Below, one piece after another: positions 41,494 through 64,000 of a DNA stretch of 64,000 nucleotides. Position numbers and translations under genes: made by a program. Under the pieces are notes generated by a model, which was not told where the DNA came from, did no database searches, and saw only the letters and a list, made by a program, of their open reading frames with translations. This DNA is from Amoebophrya sp. A120. Taxonomy: Eukaryota; Protista; Dinoflagellata. Location of the stretch: positions 16,058,142 through 16,122,141 of the forward strand of contig CAJINV010000001.1 in NCBI GenBank assembly GCA_905178155.1, given 5' to 3'. Position 1 is the stretch's first letter. Each line of letters opens with the position of its first letter.

Positions 41494-44400
41494 TTATTCG
41501 GAATAATATCCCAAAACGCCCAAATCTGCCTGCAGCCGGACGTGGTTCAGGTGCGTGCCAAAGCTGAACAAGTTTCCGCCCCCGCCGACCAGGTGCAACT
41601 TCCCTCCATCCAAGCTCGCGGAGTGGTGCATGCAGAGAAAGTTACAGTCGGGTTGAAGCTTGGTAGAATTCTGGCTTTTTTCATCGATCTGCAAGGTGAT
41701 GATGTCCGTGATTTCGCACTGTTCGAAAGAAAAAAAGAACAGGGGAATTTCAGCACTGCTGTTCTCGCTCTTTGACACCAAGCAGTCGCCCACAATCAGT
41801 GCGCCAGAGGAGGTCCTCCTCCCTGATTTATCATTATCTGGCGGGATGCCGTCCGCTTGGCTGCTCTCCCGCGACGGCGCATTTCGCCTCTCGCAGGGTA
41901 GGACAGGACAGCCGTAAATCCCGGCAAGGACCGAGGGCGGGGGTACCATCGTCCCGGCGTCATTGCAAAGCTGTTCACGCGCAGCCGTCATCAAGGAATC
42001 GCTCAAGATTTGCACCGGGCTAAAAGAGGCTGAACTAGAGCTTGTGACGTCTTGTTCTATCCTTTCCATATCCATTCCCAGTGCCTCATCCGGAATAAAC
42101 AACACTTCACCGAGCCAGTTTTCCGCTCCGTCCAGGCCACCAAACAGGTACGCCCCTCCGTTTGGGCCCCAGCAGCAGGAGAGACTGTGCCGCGCGGTCG
42201 GAAGCGTGAACGGAAGCTTCCGCCATTGGATGAAAGTGTTCGTCGTTGTTCCCAGTTCTCCTGTGTTTTCCTCCTCCTTTTCGTTGGAGGATCTTGCCGT
42301 GTCGGAAGATACAGCTACTACCCCGGGTCGATTTTCGATTCTCCCACGCCAGATCTCGTTTGATGCCGCCCCGTGCTCGCCCCTGCCACCGAACACAAAA
42401 ACTTCGTGCCGAGTCGAAGAAGACAGATTATCTTGTTCGCAACTGCCCCTCCGCCGAACCAGCGTGGCGTGGCGATAGATACCTGGTGGACCCTCGGCCT
42501 CGGTGGCAAAGCGGGGCTCATTTTCCGCCGCGGTGGGCGGGGGATCCTCGAGAGCACAAGGCTGTAGTAGAGCCGCATCGTCACTGCAGGCAACAAAGTT
42601 GTTTTTCCCGTCGTCGGTTTCGTGGATGCTGAGAAGTTGTTGCGCCATGACTCTCCTTGACGTTTTCGTTGTTCCCTGGTGCTGAAGCGACGGCTTCCAC
42701 GGACTAGTGCGGCCTCCAAGTACTAGCACTTTATTCGAGGACGTTGCAGAGCCCGCCGGAGATGCGAAGTCGTCTAGCACCACCGCGCTCGCTCCCATGG
42801 GGCAGGCCATCGCTGCCGCACCCGGCGCCGGATTTTTATGAGAGGGAGCAGCACTCCCGCCACTGTGCAAAACACTAACCGTCGTGTCCTGGTGGGGAAA
42901 TAACACACCTGCGCTACTAGTAGTGCAACCACTATGATCCTCCGCCACACACACCATTGCCACACTGTTCAGTCGCTGGTGATTACCCGCTGCAGTCTTG
43001 CCGAAACCGCCATGCAAGCAGAAAGCTTTCCTCTGCCGATCGAACCACACCGCGGAGCCGTACCGCGCTCCCAAGGAGCAGGGGAACGCGCGTCCGCTCG
43101 CACGGGAGACCGAGATGGAGGACAAGGACTGCTCGGCTTGTACATCTCGCAATCGTTTCCAACACGTCGGTTTCGTTTCTACTTCGTTGCTAGGACCACT
43201 AGCTGCTGCTGTTCCTTGGTTCAGCATGATTCTCGCGAGCGCAGACCGGTCGTTCCCGCCGGCAATGAGCACGTAGTGCTGGAGCTTTGCGTGCCACTCT
43301 TCAAATTCGTCGAAGGGTTCGATTGTTTTCCACCGTTCCAGCACGTCTCTATTTTCCGCGTCGTACAGAAACTCCAGCAGCGTTCGGCAACCGGCGAATT
43401 GCAGCCCTTGGTGCAGAAAGCGCTCGGCCTGGGCCACCGGGGTCGGGTACCGGTGGTAGGCAAACAGCGGGCTTCCTCGCTTGCGGAAGTGCGCGTCCAT
43501 CACGAGCCCAAAATTCGTGTGCGGCAGCACCTGCTCGTAGGACAGAACCGTGTGGGGCGCGGAGCTCTCCGCGAAGATCTTGCCTACGGTGCGCACGACC
43601 GCGTCGGCCTCGTCGGTCGGCAAGTAGCACAGCACCACCTCGGCGAGCACCAATGTCGGCCGGTTTGCGGCGGCGAACGGCGCCAACCGCCTGCGCACCT
43701 CCTGCCGATCGGTGAGGTCGCAGCCAAGCAGTAGTTGGGCGCAGGGGCGGGGGCCTGCTTTTGGGGGGGATGGAGGGTCATGATCCGCGCTTGTTCTTGC
43801 GTTATCGTGCTCTGGAGGCGGAAACGCGTGGGCGTTCCGAGCCATAATCTCTTTTTTGCGCGTGAGGAGGTCCGGAAAATCCAGCTCAACGAACGCACCA
43901 ATCCGAGTTCGGTCGTAGTTCTTTGGGAAGGTTGTTATATCTGCCTCGGTGCTGGTGCTGTCTGTGTTTCGGTGGTGCAACCGCCAGTACAGTGTGTCGA
44001 ACCCTGCCCCGAGAACGATGATCTGCGTTGCCGTGTTATCCTGTGTAAAAACATCCCCACCCCAGAGTTGTCATGCTAAAGGAATTGCAGCACACTTTGC
44101 CCCCCCCTCTGCCCCAGGCCGCAGATGGCTTGACACGCAGGGGGGGTAGGTCAGGCGGACACCGAAGTGCCATCACCATCATCTCCCGGCCGCTAACCAA
44201 CTTTTCGCAACCTGCCATACTCCTCACTTATTCGCAATTTTTTTCCGGCTCCGCCGTCCCTGCAGGCTAGTATGTACGTGCGCCCGAGACATATAACACG
44301 TCCTCAAGTGCAACAGCACCCAAGGCGGTTTTCCTGACGCATGCAAAACAGTGCTCAGTCGGAAAACCTGGGATCACGCATAAACTACCTGGAGATTCGC

Positions 44401-45455
44401 AACCAACCATACTTGTCTCACAACCAGCCTTACTTTTCGCGCCAACACTTAGTCCTTTTGCCAACAGTTTCACGCCCACATCCAACCCCAGAGTTGTCAT
44501 GCAGATCTGCATGCGCAGGAGCATTTGTAATGCGCATCCCCATGAGAGGCATTTCCCAGCGTATTTTGGAACTTGTAATGCTGTAAACAGGGTCGGGAGA
44601 TGGATTTGCTATGCGGCTTCCCTTGCTAAACTGCATTACACTACAGCCTGCAACTTGTCATGCGTGGCTCCCAAAACTTCGAGGTTTGTGTTGCAGAATC
44701 CCCAGCTTGACTCTGGGGTGGGGACGTTTTTACAAATGATACGTGTCCGGGTAAAAGTCGATAAACCTGCGCACCGTGCGCTCCACAAGCTCGTACCGGA
44801 TCGCGTAGCCTCGGTGGATCAGCGGTGCCCGCCGTTTGATGCTTTGTGCGCCAGTCAGGTTGGGTGCCTTCGGGACGGACGACGCGGTGGCTTGTTTGCC
44901 CTTCGGTACGACGAGCGCTTTTTGTTCCGCGCCGGGGGCCACCAGGTCGTGGCTTGAGGTTCCAGTAGGCGTTTCGGTTCTATTCTTCGTGGTCGGAGAC
45001 GAGGATGCAGCTCCAGCTGCCGGGCACTGGCGACGCGCTACTCCCGCCGAGCGCTTGTCTTCGGTGCGCGGGCTGCTGCCGCTTGAAGGTTCCCACGAAT
45101 CCAGGCCTCCTTCCTTGTTTTGCTCTTTTCTTGACCCTTCCTCCGCTTCGGCATCTTTGTCCGTAATATCGGGCCTCGGTTTATTTGCGCTACTACGTTT
45201 GTGCTGCGTACTGCGTTTGCTGCCTCTTTGCGTCCCGCGATTCTCCGGAGTAGACACGACACCGGGGGGTGAGGCCGCCTTCGCCGGCCGCGTTGCTGCC
45301 CCTACTTCCTCGAACGCGAAGTACTCAACCCAGGGATCTTTGAAATACCCGAAGCGCACGGTGGAGGCCTTGGACACGATGGAGCTGTCGTTTGTTAGCT
45401 GAACACACATGGCATCTTGCGTGCCGCCAGCGGCCGCCGAAGTGGTTGACGCCAT
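41494..45455 (-). CDS. TYW4: tRNA wybutosine-synthesizing protein 4 / leucine carboxyl methyltransferase 2 (LCM domain + Kelch repeats)
   Basis: Motifs VQLTNDSSIVSKAS…GYFKDPW, RRAPLIHRGY, QIIVLGAGFDTLYWRL, VELDFPD, AEVVLCYL and EPFDEFEEWH, followed by Kelch motifs (HGGFG, VLGGRTSP, VFGGRG, LFGGLD, GGGGNLFSFGT). Two exons (45455-44742, 44031-41494) are split by an introner. Confidence 0.92.
44037..44741. mobile_element. Introner / MITE-like intron, family B, compound (705 bp), in TYW4
   Basis: TIR TATCMTKTGTAAAAACRTCCCCACCCCAGAGT with direct repeat CGTGT at 44032-44036 and 44742-44746. Removal restores …FYPDT-ATQIIVLGAGFD…. Confidence 0.93.
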
Positions 45456-46080
45456 GCTTTGTTTTCTTCGATTCTGTATCGCGAGGAAAAGTAGAAAGAA
45501 GAAAGTGAAGCGCTATATGTCTTGTTCGGGGTCTACAACTGCTACAGTAATTATCCTCACGCGAGCCTGGGGACAAGTAGGATGGAAGTTCTCAGTTCTT
45601 GTCGCGGACAATCGCGTTTCGCATCGACAAATCAAGGCATTGCAAACATTGCTGGAGATGATCGTGTGCTGCCTTTCAATCAATTTTGATCGGAAAATGC
45701 CGACGATCCTGCGCCGGGATCATTTCTTTTGCTTTGCGTCCTCCGGTCGTTGGTACTGGAGCTCGATGGCGTTTTTCAAGGAGGTGATATGTGTTCTTTT
45801 CTTCGCAGCGGAACGATAACGGGCAGTATAGATCAAATGAGGAAGATGAACAAACTCGATGATGGACCTTATCAGTTCATTGGAGATGCATCAGCAATGC
45901 GAGTCTCTAAAGAATTGCAAGCCTCTGTCTTAGGGCAGATCTTCCGGCGGGGCCGAATGCGAAGCATTTCTGAATAGCGCAGGGATCATTCACGAATCGA
46001 GATCGCCGAAAAGAGGGGGGGCGCTTTGGATCTAAGAACGCGCGCAGACTGCGGGATCAATGAGAACAAGGGCGCAGGCC

Positions 46081-46162
46081 AGGGCGGCGCAGGCCAGGGC
46101 GGCGCAGGCCAGGGCGGCGAAGGCCAGGGCGGCGCAGGCCAGGGCGGCGCAGGCCAGGGCGG
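46081..46162 (+). repeat. 15-bp tandem repeat (AGGGCGGCGCAGGCC) x about 5.5
   Basis: Near-perfect tandem copies read directly; degenerate copies flank the array. Confidence 0.9.
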
Positions 46163-46214
46163 GGGTGCGGCGCAGGTCCAGGCGGCGCAGGCCCGGGCGG
46201 CGGAGGCCTGGGCG

Positions 46215-46624
46215 CAGGCTGGCCAGAGTCGCCGAATCTCGGGCGCTGGCCGACCAGAGTCGCAAAATCTTGGGCGTTGGTTGGCCGAAGTCGCAAAATC
46301 TCGGGCGTTAGCCGGTCAAAGTCGCAAAATCCCGGGCGTTGGCCAGCCAAAATTGCAACATCTTGGGCGTTGGCCGGCCAAAATTGCAAAATCTTCGGCG
46401 TTGGCCAACCAAAGTCCCAAAATCTTCGGTGTTGGGCAGTCAAAATCACAAAATCTTGGGCGTTACTCAGCCAAAATTACAAAATGTTTGCAAAATTCCG
46501 GCAAGATTTGCAAAATCCCGGGCGTTGGCCTGCCAAAATTGCAAAAACTCCGATAGTGGCCAGCCAAAATTGCAAAATCTTGGGCGTTAGCCTCCCAAAA
46601 TTGCAAAATACCGGGCGTTGGCCA
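46215..46624 (+). repeat. 31-bp minisatellite, left arm (consensus GGCGTTGGCCAGCCAAAATTGCAAAATCTTG), about 13 degenerate copies
   Basis: Periodic GGCGTTGGCC…CAAAAT..CAAAATC units read directly. Confidence 0.88.
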
Positions 46625-47377
46625 TGTTAAATCCGGCAGGGGGAGAGGGAGAACACGACCCCCCACCGGCTAAGCAACCCACATCAGCGTGGGGCAGATC
46701 GATCACAGTAGTAGTGATTCTGGTGGTATAGCAGCCAAACTAGTAGACAAACAGCATGGGAATCATCAACAACAGTCGCCATCCATCATCATCAACATCG
46801 ACAAGCATAGCAGCAGCCTCCTCCGTGTGCTGACCTCTCTACTGGGCTCCAACCCTCGACAAGTTACCCTCCAGGCGGACCATCTACCGACACTCTCGAT
46901 AGACTACAACGACACAAACACCAGAAAGCTAGCGCCAATCGCTATAGTTTCACTATAGGGCCACAATGTGGCGCCACGGCCGCCGCCACAAGGTGACCGT
47001 GGCCCACTTTGTTATACACGACCCCCCACCGGCTAAGCAACCCACATCAGCGTGGGGCAGATCGATCACAGTAGTATTGATTCTGGTGGTATAGCAGCCA
47101 AACTAGTAGACAAACAGCATGGGAATACTCAACAACAGTCGCCATCCATCATCATCAACATCGACAAGCATAGCAGCAGCCTCCTCTGTGTGCTGACCTC
47201 TCTACTGGGCTCCGACCCTCGACCAGATACCCTCCAGGTGGACCATCTACCGACACTCTCGATAGACTACAACGACACAAACACCAGAAAGCTAGCCCCA
47301 ATCGCTATAATTTCACTATAGGGCCACAATGTGGCGCCACGGCCGCCGCCACAAGGTGCCCGTGTCCCACTTTGTTA
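46625..47377. mobile_element. 753-bp solo-LTR-like insertion with an internal 363-bp tandem duplication and 5-bp target-site duplication
   Basis: GGCCA is duplicated at 46620-46624 and 47378-47382, and removal restores a satellite unit. The element starts TGTTA and ends TGTTA. 46653-47014 is repeated near-identically at 47016-47377. Confidence 0.75.
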
Positions 47378-47703
47378 GGCCAGCCACAATTGCAAAATTT
47401 AAGGCATTGGCTTGCCAAAATCAGAAAATCCGGGGCGTTGGCCTGCCAAAATCGCAAAATCTTGGGCATTAGCTGACCAAACTTGCAAAAACTTGGGCGG
47501 TGACCAGCCAAAATTTCAGAATATTCGGCGTTGGTCAGCCAAAATCGGAAAATCTTGGGCGTGGGCCGGCCAAAATTGCAAAAAACTTGGGCACTGGCCA
47601 GCGAAAGTTGTAAAATATTGGGCGCTGGCCGGCAGAAATCGCGAAATTTTTGGCAATGGCCGGCCAAAATTGCCAAATCTTTGGCGGTGGCCGGCCAAAA
47701 TCG
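47378..47703 (+). repeat. 31-bp minisatellite, right arm, about 10 degenerate copies
   Basis: Same unit as 46215-46624, continuing in phase after the insertion. Confidence 0.85.
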
Positions 47704-47849
47704 TACATTTGTGCTTTTATACTAGGAAAATAAGGGCCACTATGCCTATAGGCTACCCCCAAATGCTACAAAGTGCTATCCTTTGTGAAGCCAGTTTATA
47801 AAAATGCAACAAATCCACAAAATCGCGACCGCCGGAACCCAGTATGAAG

Positions 47850-48650
47850 CATTATAAAGATCCCTGTCTATCCGATCGCGACCGATAATCCTTGTCCGAC
47901 CCCGAGCGCCCGTCATTCCTCCCTTCATTGCAGGGTGCGGGGCCCCGTACAGGCAGGCTGCCGCCGCCGCACACCAGAGCAGCCCCATTGGGGTCGGTTT
48001 TTGCAGCCCTACAGCACCCGATTCTGACAAGACCCTTTCCGCGCTTGCCCTGCCCGCCTGCTAAGGCGGCCTTTTCGCGCAAACGCGTTGAACCGGTGCG
48101 CGCGACCCCCGGCCGCGGTTCTCGCCCTTGGCCGCATGCTGCCGCCCGGTCCCCTTAGCCGGGATGGCACGGGGGCGGTGTGACGAGCGTGCGCAGCCCG
48201 CCTTATCTCCGCGGACCTCCGCCGCGGCAAGCGCAACCTCGGGCCGCACCTGCCCAAAAATCGAGCGGACAACCGCAAATCTGCGCGAAACCTGGAGCGG
48301 GGCGGCTTTCTCTCAGGCGCAGACCCGCGGTGGGGACACGGGCGCGGGAAGCCGCCTCCCGTCTAGTTGCTGCGCTGCGGAACCCTACGGCCGCGGAATC
48401 TCCTCGGGCCGCAGCGCAACGCAAAAAGCAACAGGACTAAATCGTGGACGCGGGGGGCACGCGGCGTGTGCGCAGGCAAATGGACGCGCACGGCTCACGT
48501 GCGCCGACATACATGGCGCAACCACAGGGAAAGCCTGCGGCCCGAAGCCCCAACGCGCGAGGAGAACCGCTCCCGCAAATTCCGGTGCTCGTTTCACCGC
48601 TGGGCGGGTAATCTCACCGCGCACGGGTGAACAACCGGCATACTGCTAAA
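47850..48650. other. GC-rich, apparently decayed segment within the strand-switch region
   Basis: High GC/CpG with no coherent ORF; same texture as 10950-12050 and 18200-20500. Confidence 0.3.
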
Positions 48651-49210
48651 GTAGGGCTTCGCGACATGCCAGTAACAAGATCAAAATGAGCGCTGCCGTT
48701 CAGTGCAGAGAAACCACGTGCAAAGATCAAATGCGTTCTGAGCAAGTGACAAAGCTTCCTATTGTAGGCGATCCTCATTCCGTGCAATGCATACTAGAAA
48801 ATGAGTTGATGCTGGAGAAAATAAAGGGATGATCAATCGAATTGCGAGCAACCATGCGAGGATCTCTATCAGCGAGATCAGCGTAAAGATCGAAATTCCG
48901 CCGCTCTTCCGTCGTACTGAGTGTCGAAGGCAGCTGCAGAGCCAACGGCTCAAAGTCTTCGATTCTCAACCCAGCGCACACAGGTTGGTCAGACAATACC
49001 TATCGCTCTTGAACGTAGACATTCATACTACACTGCAGAATTTGGAGTAGACCTTCACTGACCGAATACAGACATGTGCCGCCTTCCCGCGGGGAACTGC
49101 TTACCTTAGGACTCATTGCTACACTTGTAAGTAATTTACCCCGGCTCCGCTGCTGTTATTTATTTCTATAAAGCGCAGAACGAAGTGGGCCTCGCCCGGA
49201 CAAAGAACGC

Positions 49211-50341
49211 ATGGGGGGCCGCAGGCGGAAGATACCGGCCCGGCTGTCGCCACTGCAATCAGATTTGATGAAGGCCAGTCGCGACAATGACATTCTTGCG
49301 GTAGCGCACATCATCCAAGACCTGTTGAAAAACAATGGCCTGGATCGGTCGATCACGCCCGCTGCCGCTCCTGCAGCAGAAATCGAATCCTCAGGTTCGT
49401 CCAGTAGCACATCGACGTTCCCGTCGGCGGGTATTAGCGAAACAAGGTGTTTTTCAACAGAGTTGTTCTCCGCCCCGGTTGATCGGGCAGCGGGGGCAGA
49501 AGAAGAAGAAGAAATAGACTGTGCGGGGACAAGTAGCAATCCCAACAGTTGTACGTCTCGGCACTGCGGGGAACAAGCTGCGGCGACAGTGAAATCAACC
49601 GGGGATCAGGCTTCGGAGATGGAACAACAGCTAGGGAGGGGCTGTACCACCGCGCCGCGGTCGGCTACTCATCCAGAGGCATCGTCAAGTATTGGGGACG
49701 GAGCTGCAGCTGCGGTCGAGCGAGCATTAAAAGAAATTTTTCCCAGCGGTGGACCCGACGAAGCAAGCCCTTCGACTCACGACAGCACGAGCTCCCCGCG
49801 GGTGGAGGCCGCGCAAGTAGTAGAACACCAGCGACGAGTACCACAAGAGGGCGCGATCGGAAATGCGGACCCATCACAAACTTCGCCCACAGTAGGGACT
49901 GCACAAACGCGGCCCACCACTTGTGAAGATTCCGACCACCGCGGCCCCCCGGGTCGATCCGTGGCCCTCAACCCGCGGGTGGTCCACGCGCGCACTGCCG
50001 CTATACTGTCGGCGAAACAAGAGATACAGAACGTGGACCAGCTTGGCAGCCACTTCACGGCTCTGCACATCGCCGCGATGAAGGGGCACTTGGAGATTGT
50101 TCGGCTGCTGGTAACTGCGGGCTGCGAAGTCAACGGCGTCACCTCCCGGGGCCTCAGTCCCACGCACATCGCCAGCAAAAAGGGGCACTTGGAAGTCGTC
50201 CGCTTTCTCTCGCGGAAACGCGCCACACCGGAAAGAATGCCGGACCTTCTTTTGGAACGAGACATGGTTCGTGACGCCCAGATTGCCTGCGTGGATAACC
50301 AGAACAAGCGAGTGAAACTGGAAAAAGCACTGCGAGCATGA
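49211..50341 (+). CDS. Ankyrin repeat protein
   Basis: FTALHIAAMKGHLEIVRLLVTAGCEVN and GLSPTHIASKKGHLEVVRFL are canonical ankyrin repeats. Confidence 0.85.
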   Translation: MGGRRRKIPARLSPLQSDLMKASRDNDILAVAHIIQDLLKNNGLDRSITPAAAPAAEIESSGSSSSTSTFPSAGISETRCFSTELFSAPVDRAAGAEEEEEIDCAGTSSNPNSCTSRHCGEQAAATVKSTGDQASEMEQQLGRGCTTAPRSATHPEASSSIGDGAAAAVERALKEIFPSGGPDEASPSTHDSTSSPRVEAAQVVEHQRRVPQEGAIGNADPSQTSPTVGTAQTRPTTCEDSDHRGPPGRSVALNPRVVHARTAAILSAKQEIQNVDQLGSHFTALHIAAMKGHLEIVRLLVTAGCEVNGVTSRGLSPTHIASKKGHLEVVRFLSRKRATPERMPDLLLERDMVRDAQIACVDNQNKRVKLEKALRA

Positions 50342-51207
50342 ATTGCAGCAGCTGTTTGGGGCGCATTTTTTTTCCAAACTTTATCGACGACTCTACAACG
50401 CGACACTGTAAGATCGAGATTCATTTTTATCGACGGAAAAAGACCGCACAAGAATCAACCGCGGCAGTGAACTGCATGAAGATACGATGGCGCCGGATTG
50501 TGTATTCCTGTTTCTCCTACGTGTTCGCTCATATTGGACTCTCGCTTTTCGGTAAAAGAAGCTGCCTGGTCTGCACATTAATGTTGAATTGCTGGGGATG
50601 ATCGGAAAAGAAAATCCAGTGCGCGGGATGTGGTCTCGCTTCGTGATCGCCGTTGTCGCTTCGATGCTGATCGTGGTACCGTGTAAGTTTCTATCGTGAT
50701 GCTTGTTGAACCGCAACGGATCCTTGTACAGCTTTGAGTCCTTCTTCGTCGTTTGTTCGAGGAAGGAATATGAGATTGTTGACGAAGCAACGGTACTTGA
50801 TAAAAACAAAAATCTATCTCCGTAGTTCGGTCCCGGTAAGGGTGTGGCAGGCCGGTGTGTTTTCAAATTGCCACACAGAACGCGATGTAGAGCAAGAATG
50901 TCCTCCGGCGACGCACGCTTTGGTCATCACTCGGAAGCCCCACGCATGCGTCCGCCGCATCCTGCAGAACTAGGGTCAGTAAGAATTGATCACGCACCGG
51001 TCGGACAGCAGTCCGGCGCGGGGATGAGGCTTCGACATCGCGTTATGCCTTCAACATCCGCATTGTGCTAAAATGAATGCGGTGCAACTTCTTTCCGACG
51101 GGCGCATGGCAATCTGGTTTTTTCTTGAAATCACGGAAATAAAGTAGAGCGAACGGTACGGCAGGTGTGCAAAAAAAGTTTCCCCGCCCCGCGTACCGGA
51201 AAACAAG

Positions 51208-54200
51208 ATGCCACCGCCGCAGCTGACCGCGAACCCGTCGGGGTGCGATGGGTTCCAGAAAAATCCGTTCAAGCCGGAAAACTGCAAGAAATGCGGGAAG
51301 TCGTTCCTTGAGCACCTCGGAATCATATCAGCTCAGGATCTGGCGGACGCCACTGCGCTCTACGAGCAGAGGATAAAGAAGGAAGAAGACCGTACTGCGG
51401 GGTTTATCTTTGTTCTTTTGTGTTTTGCATGCAGTAGCAGCTTGTTGGTTTCCTGATAAAAATCGCGTGATGGTGTACTTGCTTGACTCTACCGCTGCTC
51501 CCTTGCGACCTGCGCATAAGTGCAACATGTGTGGCAGTTTCTATAGTTATTTGTGCATGAGAAATAATGAACTACTAAACTAACAGGGAAAAACGCCAAG
51601 GCTGCGGATGCGCACAAAAAAACCTTCGAAGCCAGGCTCGAGAAGCAAAAGGAGAAAAAGCAAGCGGAGGAGGAAAACGACTGGTTTTTCGACGATGACA
51701 AAAAATCTTCGCAGGCGGCGAAAAACAAACTCCCCAGTCCCGCAGCGCCGGCGCCCAGCGGAGCCGGCGGCGAGGAGCACATACATATGATGACGGAAGA
51801 CGAATTGCGAAAAGCCAATGAGCAGCTGCAGAAGAAGGCCCAGGCCGGCAAGGCAAACGTGCAGATCAAAAATCTGATCGACTTTGCGGAGTTAGAAGAG
51901 GAAGCTAAGGTGAATAGAAGTGATGTACTTTTGGTACAAAGGCGGAGTGCGCTGCACAAATTATCGGGATTCATTCTCGCTTCATGGCGTAGAAATAAAC
52001 CAACAAGATTAATAATGATCCAGTGGTTTTGAAGATTCTTTCGTGCAGCAGACAACCAGAAAAAAATTCTCAACAACAAATAGGAACACATGGCGGCTTC
52101 ACGGTCGCTACCGACTCTGGACGTTCCACCGCCCTCGGACGGATCGCGGAGTCCACACGTCGGGGGTGCGCAGACACTGCCAACGAACCTAGGGATGAAA
52201 ACGTCTTCGCCGAACACAGACCGGTTTGACATTGCACAGGATTTTGGGGCGCCGGGGCAGGATATCAATGCGGTAGAGGAGTTAAAAGCGGAGTTGGCTA
52301 TGCTAAACGAAGAGCGGACCATTCAAATCGAGATACTCCGCGACGAATACGAGTCGAAAATTGTACTGATTTACTTATTTTGTATTGCACAGCCCAACAA
52401 GCACTTTTGCTTTCGATGACATTGATTGTACGGGCGCTACTGTACTGTAAAGACCAAAAAAAATGCAGTAAGTACACACTCATCTTCTCTTCAGGCAACG
52501 CTCCAGAAGCAGCTGCAGGAGGGAGGGAGTGCGCCGTCGCGACCCGCGCGAGAGGAGCAACTGGAGAAGCAGATCCACGAAAAGGAGCGGCTGCACCAGG
52601 CAGCGCTCGGGGAAATCGCGCAGCTGAAGGAGCAACTTGACGAGGCAACGCAGAAGCGCAAGCAGGTCGAGGACCGGCAAGCGTCCCTGCAAGGCCTTCG
52701 GGAAACCGAGGCCGGGAATCTCCGGGAGGAAACGACGCGGCTCCGCGAAGAAAGTGCAAGTTCCCGCGAGGAGCTCAAAGTGGCGCGGGAGGAAGTTTTG
52801 CGGCTGAAGGCAGATCTCCGGGGACTACAGGAAACCGGGGAACAGAAGGAGACAACGCTCCGGAAATCACAAGCGAATGAAGAGGCAAAGGCGCTCGCGC
52901 TGGCCAACAAAGTGGTAGAATTTGTCGCTTCTGAAATGTCCTCTGTGTGGTGCAACAGTTTTGTGAAATCAGGACAATTTTCCGTAGGTGGTAAGAAGAA
53001 AAAATAACCAAACGGGGCAACTCATGCCCTTTTTTTTGCGCTCCTGAACCTGATTCATTTTTCCAAAACTGCGTACAAATCCAGGCCGCGCTCGAAGCGC
53101 AGATCCGGGCCGGGCGGGACGAGGAGGCCACACAGCTTGCGACGCTGCAACAGAAATTACTGGCCTCTGATAAAGCCATTCAAGAAGCGGAGAACGCGCG
53201 GGACCTGGCCCGCGGCGAGGCTGAGCAGTTGCGGTTAGAGTACTCGGAGTACAAAATCCAAGAGCAACGCCGCGGCGCCGAGTTGGTGGACTTGGCGAAG
53301 GAAGAGGCGCTGCAAAAAGTGACGAAGTTGCAGGCCACGCACGAAAGGCAATTGGAAGACCAGGAGCAGCGGCACGTTGCAGAAAGAACGGCGTTACAGG
53401 AAGAGCATATGCGAACGCAGGACGTGTTCAAGTCTCGGCTCGAGGCAGAGACCGCGGCAACGCGCGCCCGGATCGAAGAAGAGTTGGCAGGTTTATAATT
53501 TTTTGTGTTGATTACAATTTGAATTTGTGCTCTTCATCGATTTTGCCTTTACGAAGGATCTGCTTCTTGAATCGTCCGAAGCCGGATCATTTTCTTGTTT
53601 GTACTACTTTACGCACTGCGTTTTCAGGTCGGGCCGCGGTTTTGGAAAGAGAGAAAGGCGCCGAGATCCAGATGCTCCGCACTCAGGTCGAGCAACGAGA
53701 AGCGGAATGCGAACAGTTAAAGGAGCGGGTTGAGTTACAATCCGGGCAAGTAGAACGCATACCTCTGCTAGAGGCAGAGGCGGAACAGGTAGAAATTCTG
53801 GCAGCACAATCTTTGAAGAAGAACTTTTGTTGGTATGATATGCTGTAGGGACAAAAAACACAGTCAGAAATCGGATTTACATCGATCAACAGCACCGGTC
53901 CGACCTGAGTGCCTTGTTGGCGGAAGTGGCGGAGCACAAGAAGCTCGAAAAAGAAAAAGAGCACAAGGCTGCGGACGTGGAGCACCGGCTCGCGGCCAAA
54001 ACGACTGCGATGGAGCTGCAGAGTGCGGAACTCGCCACGGCAGAGGAAAAACTGTTCGCCACCGAGCAAGCGCTGGCGAAGGAAAAGCGCAGCCGGGAAC
54101 AGGTCGAGCAAGAGAGCAAGGAAAAAATCGAGCGCGATACCGCAAGCCTGCGCAAACGGACGACGGAATTGGAGACTCAATTGCACTCCCTCATCGCCGA

Positions 54201-55343
54201 CAGTTCGAAACTTGGAGCCATGAACACCGCATTAAAAAAGGAACTGCAGCAAGGTATTTTCGATTTTCTTTATCGGGCAGTGATGTACAGTAAGTTCTTA
54301 CTTTCGATCGCTCAATCATACATAATCTTCAAGACGTGTGCGTGTGCACTATGCTCTATGAACAACAACGCAGATCCGATGGGTTCTTTCTCGATGTTCG
54401 TCTTTTGTGACTAAAATGTCACCTCTCTGGAAACAACACTGTGTAGGCAAAGAGTCCCTCGCCAACGCGTTGGCTGGTAAGGAGCAAGCGGACCGGGACT
54501 TGCAGCAAAAGGAGAAGGAGCTACAGCAGGTCAAGGATGATTCCCTGCTCGATGTGGAGAACCTGGCGCTGCGGAAAGAGCTCGACGACGCGCGCAAGTC
54601 GCAGTTCCAGGAGCAGCAGGCGCAAATGGAGCTGGATTTGCTCCGAAAGGCGCGGCTCACCCCCTCGGGGGAGCTTGGGCAGGACGTCCTCGCGCGCTAC
54701 CTCGGCGAGCAGAAATCGCTGTACCAGAGAATGTTGGAGCAAAAGGACGAGCTGATACGGAAATACGACGACAAATTGAACAAAGGTACAACTCTGGGCG
54801 ATTTTTTTTTGAATGCAGTGATTTACGCACCCAGTTTTGCATGCTGGTACACAACATCTTCCGTCCGCATGACCACGGGTGGTGAAAGGAAAAAAATCAA
54901 GCTGTGAACCTCTTTTTCACTTGTAGAGTAATACCCAAATATATAATCGGCGACCTGCTTCTACAGGCTCGGCGTCTCCGCTGGCTGCGCGGAATCGACT
55001 ACCGTTTGCACCGGAAAAGCGCAGCAGTGTAGAAAACACACCACCGCCGCCTTTGGGTGTCAGCAGCAGCAACACGGCAATTGCAACCAGCGCCAAAAGA
55101 TCGGACATGGAACAGAACATTAACAACAACGCATCTACTGTGGCGACTAAACAAGATACCGATGCTTTGCGGCAAGAAATTCTGCGACTGCGCGGGGAGC
55201 TGGAGCGGCAGAAGGCCGACCAGAAGCGCTTGGTAGACGAAGCAGGTCGGAAGGCGGCTCAACAAGCAGCAAAAGCTTTTCGCGACGTCCGCGTCAACGC
55301 GGAGAAGCAGTTCGGATGGCTCTTTGCCAGGATCCCGCCGTGA
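51208..55343 (+). CDS. Multi-exon (about 9) long coiled-coil protein with an N-terminal Cys/His motif
   Basis: Starts MPPPQLTANPSGCDGFQKNPFKPENCKKCGKSFLEH. A series of E/Q/K/A-rich heptad ORFs is separated by GT-AG introns (e.g. 51392-51586) and ends …FGWLFARIPP*. Internal boundaries were not all verified. Confidence 0.7.
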
Positions 55344-56496
55344 AACTAGTGGGTCAGCGATGGCGTCGCAGGACTTCACGAATAATTTTTCGTCGGTTTA
55401 TATTTCTCGCAGGTTTTTTTGAAACATGAAAAGGTCCGTGCGATAAACAAAAGAAACAAAACAGCGCGAAAATTGGCATTTGACTCTCAAAACTGGTCGC
55501 TCCGGCTACAGTGATCTATTAAAACTTTACTATTTGGCTTTGCATTGCCATACATAACTCAGAGATATTGACTTGCTTAACAATTATCAGGCAGAGCGAA
55601 AGTGCTTTCCTATGTCATAACCAAAGATACAGCCCGCAAGAGGAATGGCGTCTGTGATCAAGTCACTTCGCCTGGCGGGGTGCGACCAAGCTCCTGTAGC
55701 GCACAACAATTGAATTTCATTTTTCAGGTTGTATACCTACCAACTATTCTAGCAAGACTCAAAGCAACGAACTGGCAGTAAAGGCCAGGGACAGATATAC
55801 ACCAGGTTTTTTTTTTCAAAAAGCACATATCAACTGGCCTCAAAAGTGGGTGGATCTATGGCCTCTTTTTGCTCGTCCATACTTGTACACAAAATTTCAC
55901 TTGTAAGAAAAGCATTATCGAAGAAATGACACAAAGTCTCACCTTTGATTTGTATCACCCACGGTTAGTAGAGCAACTGTATCTATCACAAGAAACGTAC
56001 CAGCGGTCTAGATATTCAATCAATACTATGCAAAATCACAAACGCACAAGGAGAACGTGTACAAAGCTAAGGATTCCTCATGCTGTTTTAGAGGAAATGA
56101 AGACGAAATGCGTTCTGTACATGAAGATTCCATCGAGACATCCATACGCCCAGCGACAAGTGCTATTGATAGGGCTGACTACGCCGGCGCTTCCCTGAAT
56201 GACAAGGAGCAGTGTTCCGTGGTGTATCGTTGTCGTCGTTTGCATCCGCTATTTCAGCGCCTTTGCTTTGATACGTTTTGGCGACTGCTCCTGCTAGGTT
56301 TAGATGCTGCTCATGCGGTTCCTATACGGAGATCTTTTTTTGCTAATTTTGACTCGTAAGCGCCGAAACCGTGCGGCAGGGTCGCAAGAGCAGTTGAACT
56401 TTTTTGAAACAAGTCGAGGTGAATAACAGTGCAACTTGCCGTTCGCAAGTTGGTAAAGTCCTTGCCACCTCCTCCCGGGTACCGTGTTACGAAAAT

Positions 56497-57654
56497 ATGG
56501 CGCCTGATCCCGTGCTATGTCACCCGAACAGCTACTTCATGGCGTCTCTCGGCGCCTCAGCAGCTATTGTGTTTGCGAACCTCGGAGCCAGTTACGGCAC
56601 GGCAAAGGCAGGGGTAAGCGGAGAAGAATTTGACATTTTCCATGAGCATGGTTGTCAACACATAAACGAAGGAAAAGAAGCACGCTCACTTTCGAAGTGC
56701 ACAAAGAATTGGCATTTACCCATCAATTGGCATTTACCCATCTCCTATTCCTCTTTCCACAGATCGGCATTGGTGGGATGGGGGTAATGCGAGGCGATTT
56801 GGTGATGCGAAGCCTTATCCCAGTAGTGATGGCGGGGGTGCTGGGTATCATGAAAGATCTCTTTTACGTTTTCAGCGCCGAATTTGTTTCTGTTGTATGC
56901 AGAGAGGACATGTAGCTTTATCAGCTGGAAACAATCTCAGATCAACTGCGGAAGGATTGAGCAGGTTCTCACAATTTCGAAGAAAGACAAATAAACCGCA
57001 GGTATTTACGGGTTGATTAGCGCAGTTATCATCACGGGCAAGATTAACAAGCCGAGCGAGATATCATCCTTCCAAGGGTACTGGTTAGTACTTGATTTGA
57101 AAAGATAGTGAAGCTTGTGATTTTCAGTTTGCTTTCAACATATAGTGTTGCCGTACAGAATACCAATTTTTGCACCGTTAGGTCGTTGAACCAAAACTGC
57201 AGCAACTTGCATGATAACGGGAACGCACATAGTAATATCGTGGGAAATAAGTCCATGGATTTTATTCAGGTATTCCCTTCTCGGGGCAGGCGTCACGGTT
57301 GGCATGAGCTCAGTAGCAGCGGGATACGCAATTGGAATAGTTGGAGACGCTGGGGTCAGGTGCAACGCGCTCGCGAACGGTATCGTTTATGTCTGTAGTT
57401 TATTTCCCGGTTTGTTGAATGGTCAGAGTTGAAGAAGTAGAGGTCGGAATGGTGCTGTTTCTCTTTCTTGCCGGTCAGTCATCGAAGGATGAATCGTCGA
57501 AAGACAAAAATCTTCCTGCATCGAAACAGGCCGTCTTTTCGTCGGGATGATTCTGATTCTGATTTTTGCGGAGGCGTTGGGACTGTATGGGTTGATTGTG
57601 GGTCTCGTCGTGGCATCCGGATCCGACAAGGCGGGGCTCTGCAAGCCCTACTAG
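56497..57654 (+). CDS. ATP6V0C: V-type proton ATPase 16-kDa proteolipid subunit c, 5 exons
   Basis: Exons 56497-56613, 56763-56844, 57002-57077, 57270-57379 and 57530-57654, all GT-AG and in phase. Motifs [38 protein letters not shown] and [22 protein letters not shown] (proton-binding Glu). Confidence 0.97.
56707..56742 (+). repeat. 18-bp direct duplication (AATTGGCATTTACCCATC x2) in intron 1 of the V-ATPase c gene
   Basis: Two exact adjacent copies. Confidence 0.85.
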
Positions 57655-58328
57655 GACATCGGTGTCGTGCCCAGCAGGACTAACAGTTGATGAGCTTTGA
57701 TGTAAAGTATAAAACATGTTGACCATGGTGGCCGTGGCCAAAGTTTTTTAAAAGGAAAGAGACACAAACTGCCGTAGAGATTTTGTGCATTGCATGCCGT
57801 TTATCTTCTGGTGTGCAGACGACCAGATGGCCGCGCTCAGTTCTTTGATTTGCGAAATTCAATGCATTCGATATTACAATGTGGACCGAATTTCCAAACA
57901 TGAGAATTATGCCTTATACGACGCCAAGGCAAAGTTAAGTGGGATCTTCGCAGAGGGGCCTGTGATTGTCCAACCCTCGTCCGCCCTTCCTGTTCTCCAC
58001 AGGATGCGCTTTCCTCGCAAGTCTTTGCGGCACCTGCTGAAATAATGTTCGTGGAACTACAGCAAAGTTGAATAGCCCGACAGTTTTTATGCAGATATAG
58101 AAGGCTTGCGTCGTTTCAGCTCTATGAGGATTCGTTTTTGAGTGGTGTAGAGGTGCATAGCGCGGCGCTCTCACCTCCAGGATCCCAAACTAAAGCGCAC
58201 TATGGGGAAAGTAATAGGACGAGGTAGCTTCAGCTGCACTATGACAAGACGCGAAAACGTAAACACCTGAAACAGGTTCTAGTACGCTTATCCCGTCATT
58301 GGTTTTTTCTACTACCTCGTATAAAAAA

Positions 58329-59003
58329 ATGATGTCTTTATCAAGTCACAACCCGGCCGCGCGGCACGAAACGACGTCGGTGCTGGGTGCAACCGCAAGT
58401 TCAGCGGCGGATTTGCTTTCCCATCCGCAAAAGCAGACGCTCCGAGACGTGGAGCGCGAGATTGACGCAAAGCTGAGAGAAATCGCGGAATTGGAATCGG
58501 AGTTGCTGCTATCGGCGGAGGAGGAGCTTGCGCAGGAGCAGCTGCAGGCAAGCACGAAGGGGACAACGCAAGACGGGAAAGTAGACGACGACGCGGCCTC
58601 ACTTGTCAGCGTCGGACCACAGCGACCTGCACCGGCGATCAAGCGGGTGTGATGTTTCTTTCTTGTTCAGTACCTCTGGCTTTGAGTGAAAACGTACGTG
58701 TAGCATTTTTCCGTTTGGGTGGGTCATGATGACACCACTTCTTGAGAACGATATTCGAAGCACTTTTTACATTTCGCACAACAGCTACGAAAACGGCCGG
58801 AAGACGCGAAGTGGCGGTATTTGCAGCAGCGACCCGACCCAACGGACCGCTGCCGGGAGCTTCTTCTCTCCACTGTGCTGCCGAAGCCGCCGGAAGATCC
58901 GCCGCGCTTTCCAAAAATGCCACACTGTGCGGTCGACGAACCGCCGGTACTTTCACACGACCCCCTCCTGTGGCGCATGCAAAGATGTTTCGAGGGGCCC
59001 TAG
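58329..59003 (+). CDS. Hypothetical protein, 2 exons, short coiled coil
   Basis: Exon 58329-58646 (…LRDVEREIDAKLREIAELESE…) joins 58785-59003 in phase over a GT-AG intron. Confidence 0.55.
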
Positions 59004-59598
59004 AAGCAGAACTGGAGTAAACCAAGTCAACAATGCACGTGACCGCTTCGGGACTAATTATGCAGCGCAATTCAGGAGGAGATTGAGATACAAAGTGCAC
59101 TTGATGAAGCGAAAATCCAGGCCGGGGCTGTGGAAGTTTGCGGAGAGGAAATGTTCTCCCCTGCCGGATCATCATGATACTTTCGTGGTCCAAGCGACGA
59201 CTTACTCACTTTTTGGATATAGCGGGTTCTGAACAAATTTTGCAAAATTTCCGGACGGTGATCGCAATCGCTTCTTTTCGAATACAGAATCTTTTACGTT
59301 CTGTCGGCTATGACGCTCATGATCAGACATTGATTGAAGGAGTGGCGATCAGATTTTTCACTTTTCAGGTCGCAAGCCCCACCTGGCACGCATCACGGAG
59401 GCTATGAGAAGAATCAGTGCTAGGGTCGTCCCAGTCTCATGTGATTCACGGAAGGACCCCCACGTGTATGCTTATTTCGCCCAAATATCACATCCGTTCC
59501 CCTTGGTATTTTAATTTTTTTTCTTGTAGCACCTCCTTTCGACGCGCCCGGTTTATTTGATAAGATATGCGTTTTGCATTTTAGAAGAAAACAAAATC

Positions 59599-62500
59599 AT
59601 GGACGACTCCGACGTGCTCGAGTTTCAGGTTTCCTCCCGCGAGGTGGGGCGCATCATTGGCACCAAGGGGTGCAACATTCGTGCCCTGGAGCAGGGTTCG
59701 CAATGCCGCATCAAAACGCCGGGAAAGCGGCCCGCGCCCCAGTTTGGTGGCGTTCAGAACAACGAGCGCGATGACGACGAGGACGAGAACTGCATGATTC
59801 GAATCACGGGCGGCAACGAGAAGTTGCGCAAACGCTGTAAGGAAGCAATTGACGCGGTGCTGATGGGCAGCGACCCGGGGGACGTCTTCGCGGAGCTCGA
59901 CGGTGCTGGCCTGATTCGAAATTTAGACCCCGTAGTCTTGAACTATCTCGGCAAGGAGAAGCAGCGGCTAGAAACCGATCACAAGGTCCGGCTGGAGCTG
60001 GAGGCGAAGTCGCTACGCATCTGGGATCAGGACGTGTACGGCAACTACGCAGGTGGTTCGTCGAGCTCGTCCTCCAGAGGTGGGGGGAAAAATGGCCAGA
60101 AGGGACGAGGAAAAAAGGCCGGAGGAAAAAATCACCACAAAGGTGGTCCTGCCATGGATGTGGACGAGGAGAGTACAACAACTACAGCGACTTTCAACCA
60201 GAACAACGTGGGCAGTAGTTCAACCGGCGTCGCCAAGTCCGACCGGATTGAGCAGGCCCGCCAGGCCATACAGCAGGAGATAGACGACTTGCAGACCAGC
60301 GAGGAGATTATCGTGCGCGTGCCGGGGAACCGCGTGAACCAGATCATAAACCACAGTTCGCTGCGGCAGTTGCAGGATACCTCGCATATCCAAACAATGG
60401 TGACGAAGGATGACGAGGGCACGGGGATCCGGCTGATCGGACTAAAGGGCGCGATCGAGGAAGGGCGAAATTGCATCGAAAAGCTGATCCAGGGCGAGGG
60501 TGCGGATTTTCTCGCGCTCTACCCGAATTTGATTCAGGATCTGCTCGGGAAGAACCGCCGCATGGAAGCGGATTTCCACCGCGACTTGAAGTCCGCGGCC
60601 GAGTTATCATTTGTAAAAATGTCCTCACCCCATAGTTGTCATGCAATTCTGCATGCTGAAGATGTTTCTCATGCGGAGCCCCATGAGAAGCATTTTCCAA
60701 TCGTGTTTCAGACTTTATTGTGCTCCAATCAGCATGATATGCTAGATTTGTGATGCTAGTGAACTAGCTAAACAGGATTACACTCTGAGACCAAACTTGT
60801 CATGCGCAACAACCAAGCCTTGTGGATTTTTTTAGCAGATTTCCCATCTTCACTCTGGGGTGGGGACGTTTTTACACAGGATACGAGTACTGCGGGGTGC
60901 GGGTATCGTTGGAGGGAACCAAGTTGGCTTTCTCCGACGCAAACCCGGAGCAGGTGCACTACGCGTATCAAATGTAAAAATGTCTGGGTCTGGAAGAATG
61001 CAACTTGTCTAGCTAAATCTGAAGCGTGCAAAAATCTGTGTTGCATGATTACCAAAAGTCGTCCAGTTTTGACAAAGTCGGGAGGCAGTTTCTCACGCAG
61101 GGTAGGCATGAGAAAGATCGCACAGAATCTGTCATGCTAGGTCCTGCATTCCAGACCTCATGGGTCATGGAAAAGCTGCATGACAAATCGCGCATTCTTC
61201 CAGACCCAGACATTTTTACATTTGATAACGCGAAGGCCGAGGCCATGAACATCCTCACCTACTACTTCCCGCAAAACTGCTATGGATGTGTCAGAGTTGA
61301 AATCGACAAAGTTGAAATAACTTGTCAAGCATAAAACCGATACCAGTTGGAAGCCCAATTTCCAAGCGGCGCATGACAAATTTGAGTAGAGCCGAAGCCC
61401 AGTTTGTCATGGTGTTTGGGTAAGGAAGACGCCTTTTGTCATGCTACTTTAGCAGCTCTATTTCTACCCCGAAACAGGCTTACAATCTGCCTCCCTTGCC
61501 TACTCTGCAAGACAGGCAGTTTCTCCGTTGCATTTTATGCATGACAAATCATTTCAACTTTGTCGATTTCAACTCTGACACTTCCATAACTGCGCCAAAC
61601 TGGAAATCGCCGAGCAGTCGGTGGTATCAAATGTAAAAATGTCTGGGTCTGGAAGAATGCAAGTTTGTCATGCTTGTCTGGCATGACTGGTAAATCTCTC
61701 ATGCACATTACCAAAGAGCCCCACTTTTCTGTCATGCAGAGACGCAATTTGTCATGCAGAATAGGCAACACTTACAAGCTCAGAAATTTGTCATGCTGAG
61801 CCAGCACTTGTGGCCTCCTCATGCTACGCCACTCAGCATCACAGGTTTCCAGACATCCAGGGATTTTTGCATTTGATAGGTGGACTACGTGGCCGGGGAG
61901 GAGGACCGGAATTTGATGCGGCTGCAGCAGTATCAAATGTAAAAATGTCTGGGTCTGGAAACTTGTGATGCTGGGTGGCGTCTCATCATGAGGCTACAGA
62001 TGCTGGCTCAGCATGACAAGTTTCTGAGCTCCTAGGTGTTGCCTATTCTGCATGACAAGCTGCGCTTCTGCATCACAGAAAAACGAAGCTCTTGGGTAAC
62101 ATGCATGACAGATTTAAGAGTCATGCCAGACAAGCATGACAAACATGAATTCTTCCAGACCCAGACATTTTTACATTTGATAAGCAGATGGGCGCGAGCG
62201 TGTCCCTGGATCGCGATCACGGCTACGTCTGGGTCTGCGCGCCGCAGGCCCGGAACGTTGACGCAGTGCGAAAACGCATCGACGACCTGCAAACCAGCTG
62301 GCGGGAACTTTTTCAGGTAGTTAGAAGCATTCTTGCGCGGAGGTAGCTCACCTCGTAGTAATTTTGTGTAATGCTGCTTGGTGTAATTCGAAATAGCGGC
62401 GCGCTCCATGCGTCAGTAATTTTTTCTACTCCCCATGCCACCAACAGGTGATATCAGTTCGACACCAGGGGGACTTTGGCAAGCTCTTCAGTCGCGATGG

Positions 62501-63029
62501 GAAGTCGGTGCGTCAAATTCAGCAGGAAACCGGGGCAAAAATCGAGATGGACCGAAATAGTATGGAGGTGCGCATCACCGGCCCATCAAAATCCGCTGTG
62601 GATAGTGCCAGGGAACAGATTCGCACCAAACTCGGCTACGACGGCCGCAGCGGGGGCGGCGGGGGCGAGAAGCGGGGTGAAGCCGTGAGGCCAGAAAGTT
62701 CGGGGCACGGCGGTAACAAGCGAGGAGCAGGGGCAATCAGTGCGGTGGAAAAGGTAAGTCGGACACTATTTTTTGCGTATGTTAGTAGAGCGAATTTGCT
62801 ACACCTGGTTTTCAGTGCGAGTGCTAGAGCTCGTTTCGATTTGTCCAGCACAATACAAGTACAGCTACAGCTGGAGAGTTAAACGTAGGGAAATAACTCT
62901 CTACAGCTCCAGAAGCAGGCAGAGCAGCAGGCAACTGGTGGCGACTGGGATGCGGGACCGCCACAGAACCAAACCCTGACCAACCTCCGTGGTCGGACCG
63001 GAGCCGGGCAGCAGGCGGAACAGTGGTAG
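59599..63029 (+). CDS. Multi-KH-domain RNA-binding protein, 8 exons, five introner introns
   Basis: KH motifs VGRIIGTKGCNIRALEQ, VPGNRVNQII, VDYVAGEEDRNLMRLQ and FGKLFSRDGKSVRQIQQETGAKI. Exons 59599-60604, 60889-60965, 61233-61280, 61594-61624, 61884-61930, 62188-62316, 62448-62753 and 62907-63029 give one continuous frame. Confidence 0.88.
60605..60883. mobile_element. Introner, family B (279 bp), in KH gene
   Basis: TIR TATCMTKTGTAAAAAYGTCCYCACCCCA with direct repeat CGAGT at 60600-60604 and 60884-60888. Removal restores …KSAAE-YCGVRV…. Confidence 0.93.
60966..61227. mobile_element. Introner, family C (262 bp), in KH gene
   Basis: Perfect TIR TATCAAATGTAAAAATGTCTGGGTCTGGAAGAATGC with direct repeat ACGCG at 60961-60965 and 61228-61232. 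Removal restores …QVHYA-KAEAM…. Confidence 0.95.
61281..61588. mobile_element. Introner, family A (308 bp), in KH gene
   Basis: TIR TATGGAWGTGTCAGAGTTGAAATCGACAAAGTTGAAAT with direct repeat ACTGC at 61276-61280 and 61589-61593. Colinear with 22514-22819. Removal restores …FPQNC-AKLEI…. Confidence 0.95.
61625..61878. mobile_element. Introner, family C (254 bp), in KH gene
   Basis: TIR TATCAAATGYAAAAAT… (right end degenerate) with direct repeat GGTGG at 61620-61624 and 61879-61883. Removal restores …EQSV-DYVAG…. Confidence 0.93.
61931..62182. mobile_element. Introner, family C (252 bp), inverted relative to 61625-61878, in KH gene
   Basis: TIR TATCAAATGTAAAAATGTCTGGGTCTGGAA with direct repeat AGCAG at 61926-61930 and 62183-62187. 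Removal restores …MRLQQ-MGASV…. Confidence 0.95.
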
Positions 63030-64000
63030 CTCAGCGCGCACTGCCAACGGTTTACGTCTCCCCCACTGAGTGTAGGCACGACGAAACATGTGTCTGGATC
63101 CCTGCTCAAATAAAGTTATCTTTTGCACCAGCGACAATCTGATTTCCATTTGCGCCAGCGAGAACGTGTGTACTTATTTTAATAAAAAGAAAGGTGCCAC
63201 TTCAAGAAGCTTCGGCCACGGGTCCGATCGGGCCCTGCCCACTGCAAAGTGAAAGTGAATTCAAACGGCGCGGTGGAGAGTCGTGTTCGCGGGTGGACTG
63301 GCATCGGCTTGGTCCGCTGCCGCTCGAAGTGGTCTCGTTCGCGAAGTCGGTCGTGCGGAAGTTGTTGGTTGGTATTCCAGCATGAAAATTCATCGTGACT
63401 GTGGAACTGTTACTTCCACGGAAGATGATGGTCTCCTGGAAAGATCCTTATCATGCGCCCGGGCGCAAGCGATCACTCATTGTTCGTGCGCATTTTTCAC
63501 CGATGTTGATCCGCAATTTTTCCCCTCACAAATAAGTAGGTGACTCGAGCTGATCTTTTATAGATGGTCGCAGCAGCAAGGAAGTACGACGTCACCGAGT
63601 TTGACAGATCTGCAGAAGGTCTCTCTGTTTCAGAACCGTACTCATGTTTCGGCTGAAGCAGATTCATTTGTTTCACTCGTCTCTCCTCACATTGATTGTA
63701 TGTCATACACAGGCTCTGAAGGTGGTTTGGCCATTCTTAGCTACGGGCACTTGGACTATTTTTGTATTGTGCCACAACGCATGCATGTAAGAGCGAGCAT
63801 TTGTTGCGGCCCGCGATGCAGAAGTCACGTAGTCCCATCTTCTTAAAAGTATCGCAAAGAGCAGGCTCCTTATCATCATGACGCAAGCTGCAATGGCGCG
63901 CGAGGTCGCGCTGCGGCAAGGTTTGCTGGAAGCCGATGCGGATTGGACGTACTATTTTCAACACGTGAATCAAATTCAAAACCGATTAAGGAATCACAAC

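Follow-up and report, generated by a model that had tools for sequence, protein, structure and literature searches.

The introner elements described for Amoebophrya sp. A120 carry inverted repeats at both ends (TAT, seven variable bases and at least three As), are bordered by direct repeats of 3-5 nt (5 bp in the legend of Fig. S19), have a mean length of ~240 nt, come without a transposase and are mixed with GT-AG introns within a single gene (Farhat et al. 2021, PMC7789003). According to the same paper, Amoebophrya removes tens of thousands of non-GT-AG introns, apparently without U1. Another Amoebophrya has mostly GT-AG introns (PMC12005148), and the A120 introners were assigned to diverse transposon classes (Gozashti 2025, PMC12130899). 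In Polarella glacialis, introner classes are described that created introns in either orientation, and the same is attributed to Aureococcus anophagefferens (Roy et al. preprint 10.1101/2020.10.14.339549, citing Huff et al. 2016); copies in opposite orientation are also provided for in the pipeline of Gozashti 2022 (PMC9860276). Activity in both orientations, noted in the preliminary description of the locus studied here, had already been published for other introners. Furthermore, transposons with terminal inverted repeats (TIRs) are excised from mRNA in C. elegans and human cells by SOS splicing, which is triggered by base pairing, is not limited to GU-AG and is apparently independent of the spliceosome (Zhao et al. 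2025, PMC12779559). In the texts searched, including main and supplementary text of PMC7789003, we found no statement on element orientation or on cross-pairing of neighbouring elements in Amoebophrya.

Here we analyse a stretch of 64,000 nt of the Amoebophrya sp. A120 genome (contig CAJINV010000001.1, positions 16,058,142 to 16,122,141; referred to as the window), in which one gene carries five TIR elements, designated A to E.

Elements of the host gene

The features of the gene are as follows (positions are those of the window).

59599..63029, plus strand: host gene for a protein of 588 aa; KH_1 domains are encoded by the first coding exon and the last but one (E 5.5e-9 and 7e-10)
60605..60883, plus strand: element E, 279 nt; TIR related but different; duplication CGAGT; removed from mRNA; without canonical register
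60966..61227, plus strand: element C, 262 nt; perfect 36-nt TIR equal to the left end of A; duplication ACGCG; removed; without canonical register
61281..61588, plus strand: element D, 308 nt; unrelated 56-nt TIR; duplication ACTGC; removed; without canonical register
61625..61878, plus strand: element A, 254 nt; TAT...ATA; 3' TIR imperfect; duplication GGTGG (61620-24, 61879-83); removed as 259-nt intron
61884..61930, plus strand: exon between A and B, 47 nt, coding; present in RNA contigs
61931..62182, minus strand: element B, 252 nt; family of A in opposite orientation; perfect 30-nt TIR; duplication AGCAG (61926-30, 62183-87); 257-nt intron of the plus-strand mRNA
62317..62447, plus strand: canonical GT-AG intron of 131 nt; missing, like the five elements, from the contig of run X3
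62754..62906, plus strand: canonical GT-AG intron of 153 nt; missing, like the five elements, from the contig of run X3

The open 588-aa frame needs all five elements removed. Retention of A or B leads to a stop at residue 406-407 and loss of the C-terminal KH domain; skipping of the 47-nt exon leads to a frameshift and a stop at residue 411 of 588. The duplications allow the boundary of this exon to shift by as much as 5 nt, and 61884-61930 and 61879-61925 are both valid registers. Of the five elements, A alone offers a GT..AG register, one out of six possible; there is none in C, D and E, and B reads neither GT..AG nor GC..AG in any register. The body of C is more distant (67% to A), and the TIR of D has only TAT...ATA in common with those of the other elements.

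In a global alignment, A (61625-61878) and the reverse complement of B (61931-62182) are identical at 219 of 254 positions (86%), with a single 2-nt gap; a repeat search returned an inverted repeat of 230 nt at 87%. The likeness goes beyond the TIRs, as the interiors (34 nt trimmed from each end) match at 155 of 186 positions (83%) in opposite orientation, against just 105 of 214 on the same strand and a mean of 48% (maximum 53%) in 300 shuffles. B had been described as the reverse complement of A along its whole length, which is right insofar as the interiors are shared too, but the copy is inexact. The inverted repeat of ~560 bp around an exon of ~50 nt was confirmed: the two elements and the 52 nt separating them take up 558 bp, and the net exon has 47 nt.

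Both elements start with TAT and end with ATA, and the TIR start TAT CAAATGT AAAAA is common to A, B and C; D does not fit this motif. Judged by their sequence, the ends of A and B fit the introner motif published for A120 (TAT, 7 nt, at least AAA), and the two elements share with A120-type introners the end-to-end inverted repeat, the direct repeat at the borders, membership of a repeated family removed from RNA, and non-canonical ends. They also display the features of MITEs, i.e., TIRs, a target duplication of fixed length, small size, lack of coding sequence and many copies. The longest ATG frame in any called element has 152 aa, and an Rfam search gave only two weak miRNA-hairpin matches, both far under threshold. 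Among the loci listed from a related assembly (see below), there are 21 additional copies of the A/B family; 13 of these resemble A more closely than B does, and 19 resemble B more closely than A does. As A and B are flanked by separate 5-bp duplications (GGTGG and AGCAG) and neither is the other's nearest relative, these comparisons identify them as two independent insertions of one MITE-like introner family in opposite orientation. A local inverted duplication of one element was considered as well and is ruled out by the differing duplications and by the closer copies.

Further elements are present in the window. At 44037-44741 there is a 705-nt relative of E (60605-60883) with ~430 nt extra after the left end; it shares E's DNA strand, within a minus-strand gene, and so forms a second opposite-orientation pair, and no RNA joint for it is among the joints listed (depth is low). 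TAT...ATA elements with exact 5-bp duplications are found in minus-strand genes at 22514-22819 (related to D at 76% and oriented like D to the sense strand), 23470-23725 and 36373-36725. A candidate element at 37816-37977 has a 4/5 duplication (TTCTG/TCCTG), and the sequence at 34647-35030 has TIR-like ends (15 of 20 paired) and no matching duplication. The region 46064-47703 is a low-complexity tandem repeat, GRRRP-like in one frame and without RNA cover, that includes a near-exact tandem duplication of 362 nt (46653-47377). Long frames are mostly on the minus strand in 1-45500 and on the plus strand in 46000-64000, the switch at ~45.5 kb being accompanied by a switch in GC skew; these strand blocks are co-oriented gene blocks of the kind described for Amoebophrya.

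Removal of A and B from the transcript

A contig of run X3 (1,526 nt, depth 16.9) is without all five elements, each gone together with one copy of its duplication, and without both GT-AG introns. Its joints around the exon are 61619->61879 and 61925->62183, with 5 letters that fit both sides. Thus, A and B are both removed from one plus-strand mRNA, as had been claimed from the sequence. The 47-nt exon is kept, and no joint skipping from A to B is among the 14 joints listed for X3. One contig of X6, a second sample of the same study, has exactly 334 nt between 60599 and 62445, which is the sum of the five small exons, versus 287 nt expected if the exon were skipped; contigs of X4 and X5 extend 929 and 920 nt past 60599, lengths compatible with inclusion though not decisive. 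X3-X6 were treated as RNA because the GT-AG introns are missing from their contigs. In the raw RNA runs X13-X15 (6, 1 and 0 reads) the host gene is not represented, and the count of inclusion versus skipping proposed in the preliminary description was therefore confined to contigs: inclusion is explicit in X3 and follows from length in X6, and no skipped form is listed. Assembled contigs drop rare forms, and frameshifted mRNA without the exon may be degraded. In the assembled transcripts, the removal of A and B is exact to the base, with the 47-nt exon kept.

Short direct repeats flanking a stable hairpin are also the signature of template-switch artefacts. Switching of the reverse transcriptase across the hairpins at the 5-bp direct repeats would account for the joining of an element's own ends alone, which share a repeat. 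Nevertheless, it is very improbable that the joints arose in this way rather than by splicing: retained A or B would cost the protein its C-terminal KH domain, all five elements and both GT-AG introns are missing together in the gene's main contig, and elements split conserved domains elsewhere (locus L058, see below). Excision from DNA instead of RNA, in the style of the internal eliminated sequences of ciliates, which resemble elements with TA-like ends and short direct repeats, is slightly more improbable still. The elements do have such ends and repeats, but run X1, which behaves as DNA (even depth of ~45, canonical introns kept), has one contig (47329-60650) running into E and another that leads from 62160 inside B to 63400, and no excised path is among the joints listed for it.

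Orientation and neighbours in a related assembly

A scan with 23 nt of the TIR found at least 133 loci in one related assembly (contigs JACKZZ01), 80 of them with long flanks. These loci hold at least 236 distinct elements with an exact 5-bp duplication, which together with 9 in the window make 245 (median length 262 nt); two shuffles of the loci gave 0 elements. The element caller demanded a 5/5 duplication and, in part, TIR pairing. Of 47 pattern hits left uncalled, 8 carried a duplication matching at 4/5 positions; in the 5 that had a good partner end, it matched at 3/5 or fewer. Host strands were obtained from a coding model after in-silico removal of the elements, with the window's genes in the training set; splicing at the related-assembly loci is deduced. 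A strand was called for 128 of the 245 elements, and the calls were consistent in 30 of 31 multi-element loci. In a Pfam check, 4 of 60 frames matched (3 of 10 loci), all in agreement with the model and none disagreeing.

Among the loci listed, 76 strict-call elements outside the window, belonging to 13 families of at least 4 copies, are oriented 37:39 to the host strand (95% interval 0.37-0.60). A clustering at 68%, with 8 orientation conflicts, was set aside for this count. The ratio of about 50:50 that had been named as support, if found genome-wide, is seen in the related assembly; the A/B family on its own, without the window, stands at 6:4 among these loci. At L058, a copy of the A family in the orientation of B interrupts a single Pfam LCM domain, and the frame is restored once the copy is removed in silico. 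At L044 (836-6090), eleven elements lie within ~5 kb in one minus-strand gene that has a Pfam match to a choline transporter.

The 348 same-locus pairs among the loci listed include 9 direct and 8 inverted pairs at >=75% identity and 16 direct and 15 inverted pairs at >=65%. Of 140 adjacent pairs, 56 are no more than 100 nt apart. No depletion of inverted neighbours was detected in these small samples (8 inverted versus 9 direct). Exons between cross-pairing neighbours are multiples of three in 3 of 10 cases, versus 22 of 66, again in small samples. On this tally, the head-to-head arrangement is an ordinary one for such genomes.

Predicted pairing of A with B

The pre-mRNA was said to be able to form a duplex of ~250 bp between A and B, and the folding predictions agree. 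The predicted A:B fold, which pairs the elements end to end, has -417.5 kcal/mol (z=-33 against 20 shuffles) compared with -248.3 kcal/mol with both own stems enforced, and at predicted equilibrium with both elements present neither A's nor B's own stem exists. Folded alone, each of the five elements is predicted to form its own terminal stem (P 0.71-0.97); over 125 elements among the loci listed, the mean is 0.75 versus 0.75 in the two orientations. In folds of successive prefixes, A's own stem holds (P>0.9) to 61960 and is displaced by 61980. Cross-pairing is possible in these models among C, A and B irrespective of orientation, e.g., the 3' arm of C with the 5' arm of A has a predicted -60.4 kcal/mol, versus -38.7 kcal/mol for A's own 3' arm. 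As a natural test, the locus is not unique. Neighbours with the same TIR can cross-pair in any orientation, and in 8 of 59 close pairs among the loci listed, direct pairs included, it is the outer ends that pair in the best fold.

If the duplex competed with the own stems, a sizeable share of transcripts might skip or circularise the exon, with the products destroyed or too rare for contigs. The predicted energies point in this direction, skipping would bring the stop at residue 411, and the transcript evidence consists of contigs; however, in the small samples at hand inverted relatives are not depleted (8 versus 9 direct at >=75%, 15 versus 16 at >=65%) and the exons in between are not biased to multiples of three (3/10 versus 22/66), both of which would be expected of a costly error. 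We consider such losses rather unlikely; they are compatible with hairpin recognition. As to the competition proposed in the preliminary description, there is no sign that it succeeds, the exon being kept in the X3 and X6 contigs and inverted neighbours being as common as direct ones. Since the exon is kept in the readable transcripts despite the adverse predicted fold, the ends are probably not chosen by equilibrium pairing. In that case, A would have to be committed by the time ~100 nt more have been transcribed, unless the ends are read by proteins. The chance GT..AG register of A may help at this site, but a second inverted pair (L040; 78%, 57-nt exon; host strand call below threshold) has a canonical register on neither strand.

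Signals at the element ends

Signals were counted on 168 sense-oriented elements among the loci listed (126 strict calls, the remainder propagated within the locus). The GT-AG register is not enriched (9/168, where shifted sites predict 7.1), and G[TCA]-AG is at chance (20/168 versus 18.6). Together with the one case among the five elements of the host gene, this means that the G(T/C/A)...AG ends of canonical U2 introners are absent as a rule. AG-ending registers are slightly in excess (91/168 versus 77, p=0.036 uncorrected). In the interior near the 3' end, pyrimidine content is equal on both strands (0.510 versus 0.515) and branch-like YTRAY motifs occur in 19 versus 21 of 168 elements, in line with the earlier view that strand-specific signals of this kind are unlikely to define these introns. 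The sense 5' and 3' ends are indistinguishable at all 20 positions compared. These counts exclude interior and dinucleotide signals and leave linear motifs inside the TIR as candidates. A motif of another kind, TGTCATG, is 8-fold denser inside the elements than outside (7.2 versus 0.9 per kb), and in the A/B family it is polar; it possibly represents subterminal repeats bound by the transposase.

It had been argued that removal in both orientations favours symmetric TIRs over strand-specific signals. In this form the argument is not supported, because the first and last ~20-30 nt of an element read alike both ways and linear motifs in the TIR are orientation-blind too; orientation cannot separate hairpin from sequence recognition. 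A modified spliceosome, or its proteins, could read linear end motifs (TAT-N7-AAA at the 5' end, the complement and a U-run at the 3' end) with no hairpin needed, a possibility that we take seriously but hold to be the less probable side of the question. The TIR would then show the same motifs both ways, and the A:B duplex would be irrelevant once proteins coat the ends. Strong conservation of TIR positions 9 and 11-14 over the 245 elements (A at position 13 in 238 and 236) speaks for such reading, as does the equal tolerance of mismatches (G-U 89 versus A-C 93 on the sense strand), in which no selection on an RNA stem was detected. Correct removal despite the adverse equilibrium fold fits it as well, and most spliceosome proteins and U2/U4/U6 are reported for A25 and A120, although U1 is reported as undetected (PMC7789003). 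On the other hand, there is no dinucleotide preference at the cut, and TIR position 10, the candidate site of a branch A, has A and G in nearly equal numbers (T 97/93 versus C 96/94 of 245). The observation that best favours pairing over a long linear motif is D, which lacks the AAA motif, has TAT...ATA only and is removed equally exactly.

Proposed mechanism

Our preferred reading, to which we assign an even chance, is that A and B are removed non-canonically via each element's own paired TAT...ATA ends, first-come during transcription. A transposase acting in trans would insert copies at random orientation. In the pre-mRNA, pairing of the TIR arms would place the two cuts at a defined distance from the stem, with one duplication removed and the frame restored wherever the element sits. 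By the time transcription has passed ~50 nt into B, the stem of A would already have formed and been committed or cut, leaving B free to self-pair; the A:B duplex, though far more stable, would be a kinetic dead end that is mostly avoided. Candidate catalysts would be the U1-less spliceosome or a nuclease plus RNA ligase.

First-come pairing is backed by the exact joints of five elements with three TIR types in one contig that is also without two GT-AG introns. In addition, own stems are predicted to fold in either orientation, and SOS splicing provides a precedent for excision triggered by pairing (PMC12779559). Against it stand the lack of detected selection on the stem, with private substitutions at TIR positions 4-30 (~0.027 per site) nearly as frequent as in the interior (0.032) and TIR pairing expected from transposition alone, the need for a kinetic step, as the predicted equilibrium fold is without A's or B's own stem, and the AG-register excess (91 versus 77), which hints at some acceptor preference. 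A, readable as GT..AG, might leave by the ordinary spliceosome.

More speculatively, first-come pairing of transposon ends on nascent RNA could amount to a second splicing system that is precise, site-blind and orientation-blind, an exact counterpart of SOS splicing that possibly uses a nuclease and a ligase; we put this forward tentatively and would sooner expect it to be wrong. If it were true, a rival duplex of 250 bp, ~170 kcal/mol more stable, would be ignored, and nearly any exonic insertion of these elements would be harmless. Neither the element type nor introners active in both orientations are new as such, and pairs of this kind are common. What we did not find in the literature searched for Amoebophrya are three constraints, i.e., the lack of an orientation bias, the lack of a preference for target sites or splice dinucleotides, and correct ends despite an adverse equilibrium fold. 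Pairs of the A-B type offer a direct assay for telling hairpin recognition from linear recognition, and kinetic pairing from pairing at equilibrium.

Comparison with known systems

A and B share end inverted repeats, the TAT motif, direct repeats and mixing with GT-AG introns with the A120 introners of Farhat et al. 2021, whereas the TIRs in the host gene (30-56 nt) are longer than the inverted repeats of 8-20 nt given in that description (PMC7789003). Like the introners of Polarella and Aureococcus as presented in the preprint of Roy et al., they are DNA-transposon-like, have target duplications and form introns in both orientations. Those introners, however, use G(T/C/A)-AG sites supplied by the element or the duplication, none of which is enriched among the elements tallied here, and as a group their classes have an orientation bias, in contrast to the 37:39 found here.

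As in SOS splicing, TIR elements are excised from mRNA near the repeats and beyond GU-AG (PMC12779559). SOS splicing is described as imprecise and fail-safe; the five host-gene junctions are exact in the main contig, where minor forms would be hidden, and are needed for the protein. On the sequence independence of the trigger in SOS splicing, the observations point both ways: elements with three TIR types are removed, yet there is no G-U bias or extra TIR conservation. SOS splicing requires AKAP17A, CAAP1 and RTCB. Finally, the nonconventional introns of euglenids (PMC12501133, PMC11282704) likewise have non-GT-AG borders, paired ends and a proposed MITE-like origin; they differ from the elements described here in end consensus and lineage, and circular excision is reported for them.
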